Below are positions 3,001 through 6,000 of a stretch of 9,267 bases of DNA, in pieces (positions within the stretch are counted from its first letter, which is position 1; the number at the start of each line of letters is the position of its first letter). The stretch lies in IMG/VR virus record IMGVR_UViG_2690316142_000005; one strand, 5' to 3'. Made by a program: the position numbers. This DNA comes from a virus (lineage: Duplodnaviria > Heunggongvirae > Uroviricota > Caudoviricetes).

Positions 3001-6000
3001 CGGGGTTGCTAATGGACGATGAGCAGTTTGATGAAATCAATATCGTTCGTGGTCAGCCAGTATCTGGTGGACGTCTGGGGGTGAAGATTTACCCCATAAT
3101 GCATGAAGAGCAGGTCAAAAAATGAAACTGGAAGATTTACCGAAATACTACTCCCCAAAATCCCCTTGCCTGACCGATGCATCGGCCTCAACGTCAAAAG
3201 ATGCGCTGAGTATCACTGATGTGATGGCCGCGCAGGGCATGACACAGAATCGGGCTGAGATGGGGTTTTCTGCGTTCCTGGGGAAAATGGGCATCAGTAT
3301 GAATGACAGGGCGCGGGCAACAGAATTACTGGCAGATTATGCACTCAGTCGGTGCGATCGTGTGGCGGCGTTGAGAAAACTTCCGGCAGAAATAAAACCG
3401 GTAGTGATGCGCATTATGGCTTCGTACGCTTTTGAGGATTATGCCCGCAGCGCAGCGAGTAAAAAGCAGTGCCCTTGTTGCTATGGGGAAAAATTTATTG
3501 AAAGCGTAGTTTTTACAAACAAGGTCCAGTATCCGGATGGTAAGCCGCCGGTATGGGCAAAGTGTACGAAAGGTGTGTATCCGTCTTACTGGGAAGAATG
3601 GAAAAAAGTCAGGGAGGTGGTAAAAGTTGCCTGTCCGGAGTGTGGCGGAAAGGGTGAGGTTTCCACCGCCTGTAAGGATTGCCGTGGGCGTGGTGTCGCC
3701 ATTCATCGTGAAGAGTCGGTAAAACGTGGTATGCCTGTTATCAGAGACTGCCAGCGTTGTGGTGGTCGTGGCTATGAAAGACTACCATCAACGGAGGCAT
3801 TTAATGCTATATGCGAGGTGACAAACCAGATAACACGCGCGTCATGGGAAAAAACAGTTAAGAAATTTTATGATGCGCTGGTGACCCGGTTTGATATTGA
3901 AGAAGCATGGGCTGAGCGGCAGTTAAAAAAGGTAACTAGGTNNNNNNNNNNNNNNNNNNNNNNNNNNNNNNNNNNNNNNNNNNATGGGCGTTTTATGCCT
4001 GACGTTAGAAGAGTTTCTACAACCCGCCGCCGAGCGGGTTTTTTATGACTGAAATCGCGTCAGTACAGTAAACGCGCTGGTGGCGGTGAATACCTGTCTT
4101 TCAGCTTGCTGGCTTTTTCGACAAGAGTTATTGGTGTGTCACGTTAACCGGAAAAGGAAAAGACATGCTAAAACAGCAGGATATGACAGAAACCGCCAGA
4201 GTGGTGTTTAATGAATTAAGCGTTACCGAACCGGCGACAGTCGGGGAGATAGCGCAGAATACTTACCTTTCACGCGAACGCTGCCAGTTAATACTGACCC
4301 AGCTGGTTATGGCGGGTCTGGCAGACTATCAGTTCGGTTGTTACAGACGCCTTCCGCAGTGAAGGCTTTTTTATTTGTGGTAAATGGGCGGCTGGTGGGT
4401 GTTAGGGGCACCCACCAGCCATCTGCTCATGCGTTGGGTTCACAAGCAAACCTCAGGCCCACTGCTTTGCGCAAAAGCAGAATGAGCCTATCAGAGACAG
4501 GCTTAATGATCCATGCTTAATACTGTAAAAATATCCAGTTGTGAGTTAATCAACGCCGACTGCCTGGAATTTATCCGGTCGTTACCCGAAAATTCTGTTG
4601 ACCTGATAGTCACGGACCCGCCGTACTTTAAAGTGAAGCCTGAGGGCTGGGATAACCAGTGGAAGGGCGACGATGATTACCTGAAGTGGCTGGACCAGTG
4701 TCTGGCGCAGTTCTGGCGGGTGCTGAAACCTGCCGGAAGTCTTTACCTGTTCTGTGGTCATCGCCTGGCATCTGATATCGAAATCATGATGCGTGAACGC
4801 TTCAGTGTGCTGAACCATATTATCTGGGCGAAGCCGTCCGGACGCTGGAACGGATGCAACAAGGAAAGCCTGCGGGCGTATTTCCCCGCCACAGAGCGCA
4901 TTCTGTTCGCGGAACATTATCAGGGGCCGTATCGTCCGAAAGATGCCGGGTATGCGGCGAAGGGCAGTGCACTGAAACAGCATGTGATGGCCCCGCTGAT
5001 TTCTTACTTTCGTGATGCGCGAGCTGCCCTGGGGATAACGGCAAAACAGATTGCAGATGCCACAGGAAAGAAAAACATGGTGTCGCACTGGTTCAGTGCC
5101 GGTCAGTGGCAGTTGCCGAATGAAAGCGATTATCTGAAATTACAGGCGCTGTTTGCCCGGGTGGCAGAAGAGAAGCATCGGCGTGGTGAACTGGAAAAGC
5201 TCCACCACCAGCTGGTGGATACGTATACCTCACTGAACCGGCAGTATGCGGAGCTGCTGAGTGAATATAAACATCTGCGGCGGTATTTTGGCGTGACGGT
5301 GCAGGTGCCGTATACCGATGTGTGGACGCATAAACCGGTGCAGTTCTATCCCGGGAAACATCCGTGCGAAAAACCGGCAGAAATGCTGCAGCAGATAATC
5401 AGCGCTAGCAGTCGTCCGGGTGACCTGATTGCAGATTTTTTCATGGGGTTGGGTTCGACAGTGAAAGCGGCACTGGCGCTCGGGCGTCGTGCAATTGGCG
5501 TTGAGCTGGAGACTGAACGTTTTGAGCAGACGGTTCGGGAAGTACAGGATTTAGTCAGCCAGAACGGATGATATTGAAGAATTAATTACGCGTCGTTATT
5601 ATGCGGCTCCCGGCCCTTTAGCTCAGTGGTGAGAGCGAGCGACTCATAATCGCCAGGTCGCTGGTTCAAATCCAGCAAGGGCCACCATCACAAACCGCCA
5701 TTAGCTTATCAGGAAGAGCAGACGACACGATAACAGGGTTGTTGGTGCGGGGGCGGGTCCCCGATGGCGGTCCATTATCGGTATTCAGCGTTGTTAGCTC
5801 AGCCGGACAGAGCAATTGCCTTCTAAGCAATCGGTCACTGGTTCGAATCCAGTACAGCGCGCCATATTCATTCTTCCAGATTCCTTCCGGCAGAGCCTTA
5901 TACTGAAATATACCTGGCTCAGGATATTGTTGAAAATATTTTATGTTTGTCAAAAATAAAAGTTCTGTTAAGTATTGATTGAGTGTTTGTTATACGGTCT

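Follow-up and report, generated by a model that had tools for sequence, protein, structure and literature searches.

The stretch of DNA analysed here, called the window (9,267 nt; IMG/VR virus record IMGVR_UViG_2690316142_000005, Caudoviricetes), was the late-regulatory region of an Escherichia coli-type lambdoid prophage. Its gene order was hok/sok, a DUF968 gene, rusA, the antiterminator gene Q, a tR'-like terminator, orf65, a leader, a methyltransferase gene, tRNA genes and STnc100. The subject of this study was the leader and the two hairpins that lie in it. The original prediction, made from the sequence of the window, regarded such hairpins as typical of recombination sites, operators or RNA processing sites. 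Our results showed that they are non-random and constrained, and most plausibly sites that act at the RNA level, whereas the recombination site did not hold. The hairpins very likely belong to a functional RNA-level element and not to a recombination site. More specifically, the sequence comparisons suggest that they are probably helices of a conserved non-coding control region (4382-4542) in a late cassette of the form (orf65)-leader-methyltransferase.

Helices of the methyltransferase leader

The leader and the genes on its two sides contained the following features.

4165-4362, plus strand: orf65, 65 aa, phrog_331, with a weak match to a TrmB-type winged helix
4382-4389, plus strand: invariant 5' flank AAATGGGC, the left edge of the conserved leader
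4390-4420, plus strand: P1, a 12-bp hairpin with compensatory changes and with many G.U pairs on the plus strand only
4425-4430, plus strand: GCTCAT, which pairs with ATGGGC to form P1a, a sense-RNA extension of P1
4421-4451, minus strand: P2, a helix of 10-11 bp (4421-4431/4441-4451), fully canonical only on the minus strand and covarying (C-G, A-U, U-A)
4456-4488, minus strand: P3, a bipartite helix (4456-4468/4474-4488) whose inner half is a 7-bp palindrome (4462-4468/4474-4480)
4485-4510, no strand assigned: P4 region by the start codon, either ATCA/TGAT (4490-4493/4507-4510) or the E. coli-specific AGCCTAT/ACAGGCT (4485-4503)
4513-4542, plus strand: methyltransferase codons 1-10, with suppressed synonymous variation (0.15, against 0.6-0.87 further on)
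4513-5571, plus strand: methyltransferase gene, PF01555 (7.9e-42), beta class N6_N4

The arms of P1, GGCTGGTGGGTG (4390-4401) and CACCCACCAGCC (4409-4420), were 100% complementary across a 7-nt loop, so the predicted perfect 12-bp inverted repeat was borne out. Only one other perfect local inverted repeat of at least 12 bp was present in the 9267 nt, where by our estimate about 0.015 would be expected by chance. Together with its flanks (4384-4432) it folded at -33.3 kcal/mol with z = -5.4, and none of 200 shuffled sequences was as stable. The stem of 12 bp, with nine G-C pairs, resembled the G+C-rich stem-loop of a Rho-independent terminator. The second hairpin, CTGCTTT-GCGCA-AAAGCAG at 4462-4480, was also found as predicted, though alone it was unremarkable (z = -0.96, not beyond chance), and the window held many perfect 7-bp local repeats. 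It was conserved as the inner half of the longer helix P3.

The leader was collected from the upstream regions of methyltransferase homologues in 80 species-representative genomes, and a covariance model, R1, was built on 42 sequences. A conserved leader of about 135 nt was common to Escherichia, Salmonella, Klebsiella, Enterobacter, Citrobacter and Erwinia through Morganella and Providencia; Photorhabdus and Xenorhabdus had a shorter form with weaker covariance-model matches. R1 matched once per locus, always directly 5' of the methyltransferase gene, with 100-186 bits in 44 of the 80 loci, and it also matched in all 78 metagenome loci that include upstream DNA. Among 5426 complete E. coli genomes, 2270-2884 had the leader, and it also occurred in phage isolates (Stx2a and Stx2c phages, phiP27, SfV and mEp460), where it carried no annotation; 124 leader-bearing loci were fetched. 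No family in Rfam 15 matched it, the best being a sub-threshold hit to P26 (24.2 bits against a gathering score of 36, E = 0.14). The leader is thus widespread and structured, an apparently undescribed candidate for a new RNA family. In Trabulsiella (locus L007, 1521-1687), a degenerate second unit of terminator, TGTGAAGATGGGC and P1-like hairpin (25.7 bits) was seen before an unrelated gene, about 840 nt 5' of the main leader.

Constraint extended into the coding sequence. The synonymous sites of methyltransferase codons 1-10 were almost invariant across genera, and since this suppression reaches codon 10, the constrained unit spans approximately 4382-4542 (about 165 nt). Codons 4-9 also contained a small hairpin (ACUGU...ACAGU). 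No conserved reading frame was found in the leader itself, where loop indels shifted the frames and stop codons were frequent. Five other candidates were rejected. The stop and Trp codons of a Trp-type leader peptide (ATG GGC GGC TGG TGG GTG TTG TAG, MGGWWVL*) were not conserved, and the ORF (open reading frame) was lost where P1 covaries, for example in Providencia. An upstream ORF from the conserved ATG (4429), coupled to the start ATGA, varied in frame between species owing to loop indels and often met stops. A small minus-strand ORF from CATGAGC lacked its ATG in Morganella and Providencia and shifted in frame. A promoter or sigma-dependent pause at TGTGAAAAT(GGG) was discarded on account of its -11 A, which was not conserved (GGAAAT and GTAAAT variants), and for an ops/RfaH element, GGCGGCTGGTGG fitted only the first five bases of ops.

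The helices themselves were supported by the alignment. On the plus strand, 85.4% of the cells paired, against 27-39% with slid partners, and 11 pairs showed double changes, as in the Providencia P1 (GACUGUAAAGGUG/CACCCUUACAGUC). When the alignment was read as the minus strand with the same structure, 93.9% of the cells were paired and the covariation score was higher. The cell counts per helix were as follows.

P1: 65 G.U cells on the plus strand, 4 A.C cells (G.U on the minus strand); canonical 95.4% on plus, 91.9% on minus
P2: 2 G.U cells on the plus strand, 146 A.C cells (G.U on the minus strand); canonical 76.7% on plus, 97.4% on minus
P3: 2 G.U cells on the plus strand, 84 A.C cells (G.U on the minus strand); canonical 85.6% on plus, 95.3% on minus

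This asymmetry of G.U against A.C cells is the basis on which P1 was assigned to one strand and P2 and P3 to the other. The folding energies in the window went the same way: P1 reached only -27.0 kcal/mol on the minus strand, against -33.3 on the plus strand; P2 gave -4.8 kcal/mol on the plus strand (z +0.2) and -10.2 on the minus strand, the only one on which it formed; and P3 gave -9.2 and -12.5 kcal/mol, respectively. At the E. coli O111 locus L204, four G.U pairs held P1 together on the plus strand, and on the minus strand P1 collapsed. The outer half of P3, GGCCCA/TGAGCC, contained a C.A mismatch that becomes G.U on the minus strand. Pair 57-83 of P2 took the states C-G, A-U, U-A and U.G, and pair 128-151 was C-G in 21 sequences, U-A in 18, C.A in 15 and U.G in one; such polymorphic sites were the most informative. 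The common polymorphisms of the E. coli-type haplotypes lay in the P1 loop or in the P2 loop (4432-4440, the most polymorphic stretch) or created G.U pairs in P1, and P3 was invariant. P2 and P3 thus behaved as helices selected on the antisense strand. Taken together, the patterns indicate folding of P1 in the sense RNA, with an antisense RNA as the best setting for P2 and P3, and they point to function on both strands. The two strand patterns were reconciled by one segment, since GCUCAU pairs with AUGGGC in the sense RNA to form P1a and the same segment is P2' in the antisense.

The 12+12 bp palindrome lies right behind the gene for a small helix-turn-helix-like protein, and P1 could therefore be a DNA operator, bound by a dimer of the winged-helix orf65 product in the manner of a C-protein on its C-box, which would repress or roadblock transcription. 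The two also stayed together where the methyltransferase was replaced (L204 and phage phiSTEC1575-Stx2k). However, P1 was equally conserved in loci without orf65, and in most genera it carried a one-nucleotide, one-sided bulge that breaks the symmetry. Variation of the G.U type on one strand keeps an RNA helix but destroys the dyad symmetry of the DNA, and in Xenorhabdus the hairpin sequence varied freely while orf65 stayed similar. An operator is therefore highly improbable.

Another alternative is a purely sense-strand leader. Its helices P1-P4 would control translation of the methyltransferase and would be opened by a factor, for example the orf65 product, as Com does on Mu mom. A small ORF lay upstream in most loci, the methyltransferase start codon had no Shine-Dalgarno sequence, the Xenorhabdus start region paired with an upstream GGCUUUCC, and P1 was selected on the sense strand. 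However, sense P2 barely formed (the -4.8 kcal/mol given above) and contained tandem C.A/A.C mismatches in most species. Moreover, orf65, which was directly upstream of the leader in most loci, was absent from 11 loci that keep the leader, and its product, with two Cys residues, was helix-turn-helix-like and not a Com-type zinc-finger RNA-binding activator. The single-sequence AlphaFold model of this protein was too poor for a fold search (mean-confidence score pLDDT 53). We consider regulation by the sense strand only to be unlikely, and prefer a control region with helices on both strands.

The repeat boundary and the junctions near P1

The original prediction had noted a direct repeat that begins at 4409, the first base of the right arm of P1, and had concluded that the hairpin marks a module junction. 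The repeat was confirmed, with 4409-5692 identical to 6768-8051 at 100% over 1284 nt. Two features at its second copy bear on the conclusion.

6767, no strand: single N at the join of the STnc100 tail and copy 2, missed in the original prediction
6768-6871, plus strand: truncated second leader copy (P1 right arm through P4), identical to 4409-4512 and judged to be an assembly product

Copy 2 did carry only half of the hairpin in the window sequence, but an N lay directly before it. The junction of STnc100, N and right arm was found in 0 of 5426 complete E. coli genomes; the junction query (6560-6980) had partial matches in 3037 of them, and no place in the 5426 searched covered 80% of it. The right arm of P1 was preceded by its own loop and left arm in all 152 occurrences among the fetched loci, a set that includes the IMG/VR contigs retrieved with an exact pattern scan, of which 120 of 120 had both arms in the same context. 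On the other side, the STnc100 tail left of the N (TTTTGTCAGATGTGA) ran on as GTAAACT... in 45 of 45 cases and in the second STnc100 copy of the window. The comparison with homologous prophages, which had been set beforehand as the refuting test, thus showed the inverted repeat to be present but not associated with a boundary, and no junction at 4408/4409 was found in any genome or phage compared.

The ends of the window were informative in this respect. Positions 2-34 and 9235-9267 formed a 33-nt perfect inverted repeat, and the pieces at the ends matched a multicopy element, which occurred at up to 43 places in one genome and at over 800 on plasmids; these pieces probably represent the ends of an insertion sequence (IS). 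Short-read scaffolds typically break off at IS copies, and a window that ends at a multicopy IS-like element fits this pattern. Layouts with two tRNAs and the DUF3927 gene and layouts with three tRNAs existed separately in complete genomes, and the most likely origin of the window is the joining of two prophages from one strain. Given an N at the join, a junction absent in 5426 genomes and IS ends on both sides of the scaffold, we regard the half hairpin of copy 2 as almost certainly produced by assembly. Before a "duplication boundary" in a draft scaffold is taken for a recombination junction, the sequence should be inspected for N characters.

Genuine junctions, of three classes, were found close to P1 in complete genomes and phages. 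In the first, homology started at 4382 (AAATGGGCGG) behind unrelated upstream genes. In the second, homology stopped near 4436, and orf65 and P1 then preceded a different gene: in E. coli O111:H11 (L204, 2366-3413) and phiSTEC1575-Stx2k, orf65 and a G.U-rich P1 variant were followed by the gene for a 237-aa helix-turn-helix protein, and no methyltransferase was present there. This arrangement suggests that the P1 unit can serve another cargo gene. The third was a deletion joint (L203, 2560-2610) right after the left arm of P1. In ST131-type prophages and phage PhiR5_1 it connects this arm with the DUF3927 gene; these had lost the methyltransferase and tRNA genes by a deletion between the left arm and a similar GCTGGTGGCGGGTGT stretch in the DUF3927 gene. 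The joint is attributed to imperfect microhomology, GCTGGTGG..GGTGT (4391-4402 against 6432-6446), and not to hairpin-specific recombination. The suggestion that modules are exchanged at the hairpin was therefore right in that exchangeable modules abut the leader, and wrong for the junction in the window. By these comparisons P1 is a conserved linker element between exchangeable genes.

It follows how the hairpin as a recombination site for prophage module exchange, with the half hairpin of copy 2 as its footprint, is to be judged. The module boundaries within about 10-20 nt of P1 on either side and the one recurrent deletion joint at the end of the left arm are in its favor. Against this, microhomology accounts for that joint, the window junction has an N at the joint and no counterpart in the complete genomes, and the hairpins elsewhere were intact without exception. 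Neither a recombinase gene nor a core-type repeat architecture was found beside P1, whose neighbours were Q, orf65, the methyltransferase and the tRNAs. This explanation is very improbable, the least probable of those considered here.

Late-operon context and the minus strand

The leader lies downstream of Q and of the late promoter PR', in a region with these features.

3122-3944: Q antiterminator, PF03589
3942-3983, no strand: run of 42 N, seen in the window sequence, which hides the Q stop codon
4021-4048, plus strand: tR'-like intrinsic terminator, AACCCGC-N6-GCGGGTT then TTTTTTAT, downstream of PR' and upstream of orf65
4298-4342, minus strand: window equivalent of EcOnc49, placed from PMC4104026 Table S2 and the locus alignment
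4349-4376, plus strand: terminator T(-1), GCCTTC-N6-GAAGGC then TTTTTTATTT, overlapping the orf65 stop codon

In close homologues, the region of the N run (45 nt there) contained the Q stop, a lambda-like PR' (TTGATT-16 nt-TAAATT) and then the AACGATGGG pause element; this sigma-pause motif straddled the right edge of the run in the window. Since the run covers the Q stop, the Q ORF was called falsely long (3122-4048). Because orf65 and the methyltransferase gene are downstream of PR' and tR', they are expected to be Q-dependent late genes. A terminator scan of the window listed T(-1) (4349-4366) and tR' (4021-4040) and not P1. In other genera the hairpin at the position of T(-1) was kept and the U tract often was not.

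The methyltransferase shared 97% identity with the 349-aa enzyme from a prophage of E. coli O104:H4, and its placement in the M.EcoGI/GII family rests on this. By its sequence (beta class, about 349 aa, lambdoid prophage of E. coli) it is a member of this family, whose enzymes have been described as non-specific, as harmful on expression and as silent in lysogens (PMC5778455; PMC6602927). Nothing on the regulation of the M.EcoGI/GII genes was found in the searchable literature.

A minus-strand RNA has been reported in the neighbourhood of the leader. EcOnc49 is an Hfq-crosslinked minus-strand peak in prophage Sp9 of E. coli O157 Sakai, at 1772764-1772808 (Tree et al. 2014, PMC4104026, Table S2), with a terminator predicted within 200 nt (PMC4104026). 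The Sakai Sp9 leader was identical to that of the window at 164 of 165 positions. Beyond the supplementary table, nothing on EcOnc49 was found in the searchable literature. An antisense RNA may be part of the leader system, although we hold this with somewhat less than even confidence.

The minus-strand data also allow a stronger emphasis, in which the core of the element is a cis-antisense RNA gene. A minus-strand RNA would start near the methyltransferase start codon, run through P4'-P1' into antisense orf65, be bound by Hfq there and pair with the sense leader, so that translation is blocked or cleavage triggered, comparable to hok/sok or RNA-OUT, and the sense P1 would be secondary. This overlaps the two-strand control region that we prefer and differs in emphasis. 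The G.U asymmetry of P2 and P3 favors the minus strand, the intermediate of pair 128-151 is a G.U on that strand, and EcOnc49 with its predicted terminator, the terminator-like site at the Sakai orf65 start, the nucleotide-level constraint over codons 1-10 and the toxic protein product fit as well. On the other hand, no recognisable promoter was present (TATTTT was lost in 8 of 32 sequences and a -35-like TTGAYT was wrongly spaced), no clean terminator followed directly after P2' or P1', P1 favored the plus strand, and the short leaders of Xenorhabdus had no strand bias. We regard it as a doubtful reading of the locus, more tenable than the purely sense-strand leader.

Several observations weigh against the RNA-level control region in the form proposed here. 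In the window, a U tract directly 3' of P1 was absent (the tail is AUCUGCUCAU), and P1 is not a canonical terminator. P4 had weak support and mixed strand preference. The excess of A.C cells came largely from a few fixed positions in related sequences and represents few independent events. Methyltransferase homologues 73-76% identical in Erwinia endophytica (L022) and Pantoea sp. (L038) had no detectable leader. The equivalent of EcOnc49 lay about 50 nt past P1 in the minus-strand direction and adjoined the leader with no overlap, and EcOnc49 itself passed in only three data sets of crosslinking and analysis of cDNA (CRAC), without a Northern blot (PMC4104026). A consensus scan found no sigma-70-like promoter for a minus-strand RNA, the candidate -10 elements were not conserved, and one weak minus-strand terminator-like site, near the orf65 start in Sakai, was the only one found. 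Finally, the N at 6767 could mask a real base, which would make the window junction a private, one-off rearrangement.

Other elements of the window lay further from the leader. A hok/sok-type type I toxin-antitoxin locus was located 5' of the DUF968-rusA-Q block (Rfam sok at 783-958, 112 bits, with an ORF at 896-1108), and hokD was annotated in its homologues. The two copies of the STnc100 small RNA (sRNA) family, at 6561-6750 and 8297-8486 (132-134 bits), were 95% identical to each other and lay in the "moron" region, which in prophages of enterohaemorrhagic E. coli (EHEC) is the site of the convergent anti-sRNAs. The second perfect 12-bp inverted repeat of the window, TCCTTATGGACT / AGTCCATAAGGA (8509-8520 / 8531-8542, with a 10-nt loop), was at the 3' end of an iraM-like ORF (8512-8847, minus strand), and may be a terminator.

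Proposed control of the methyltransferase

The most likely function of the leader, as deduced from its position and conservation, is to keep the methyltransferase silent outside Q-driven late transcription. Late transcription from PR' would pass tR', orf65 and T(-1) only when RNA polymerase carries Q. Transcripts in the lysogen that escape tR' would be stopped at T(-1) and at or by the P1 hairpin. P1 with P1a, right after T(-1) in the sense RNA, may form a second barrier, or insulator, or may have a role in RNA processing or stability; the Xenorhabdus equivalent of P1 often had a U-rich tail and was terminator-like. Residual message would be poorly translated, as its start codon, with no Shine-Dalgarno sequence, would lie inside structured RNA. 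A minus-strand RNA that is complementary to the leader and contains P2 and P3 may silence the gene further in lysogens. In lytic growth the Q-modified polymerase would read through, and the methyltransferase could then protect the progeny DNA.

Parts of this arrangement are known from other systems. The late-operon leader of lambda (PR', 6S RNA and tR') together with Q resembles the window in its position after Q, in the promoter and pause (TAAATT ... AACGATGGG in homologues), and in terminator hairpins that are read through only by Q-modified polymerase. In the window, by contrast, tR' is followed by another terminator, a long structured leader and two genes, and P1 has no U tract; no equivalent structured element has been described for lambda. 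The com-mom operon of Mu shares a small upstream ORF, a structured leader and a toxic DNA-modification gene whose start lacks free ribosome access. Unlike com, orf65 encodes a helix-turn-helix-like protein and no zinc finger and is missing from some loci, and most of the helices fit the opposite strand better.

The cis-antisense systems hok/sok, IS10 RNA-OUT, the antisense RNAs of EcoRI restriction-modification and lambda paQ have in common a toxic product and a structured RNA complementary to a 5' leader. The window is similar in the antisense-strand G.U pairs of its helices and in the Hfq-bound antisense RNA reported nearby, but it showed no sequence or Rfam similarity to these systems, and its antisense RNA is predicted only. 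The sRNAs of EHEC prophages (the EcOnc set, AgvB/AsxR and StxS) share the neighbourhood downstream of PR' in lambdoid prophages, and EcOnc49 adjoins the leader; those that have been characterised map either behind the moron genes or in the interval from PR' to tR', whereas EcOnc49 is uncharacterised.

We tentatively suggest that the leader may encode a hitherto unrecognised sense/antisense RNA pair that silences the promiscuous, toxic M.EcoGI/GII-type enzymes in lysogens across Enterobacterales, with EcOnc49 as the antisense part and P1 as the sense insulator, a combination that is less likely than the control region in general. If true, an anti-restriction enzyme of phages would have a safety catch similar to a type I toxin-antitoxin system. 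The non-specific adenine methyltransferase M.EcoGII is in wide use, and roughly half of the complete E. coli genomes contain relatives of it, frequently in several prophages, Shiga toxin (Stx) phages among them. The silence of these harmful enzymes in lysogens has so far only been guessed at, and a structured leader, with or without an antisense RNA, would provide a concrete mechanism for it.

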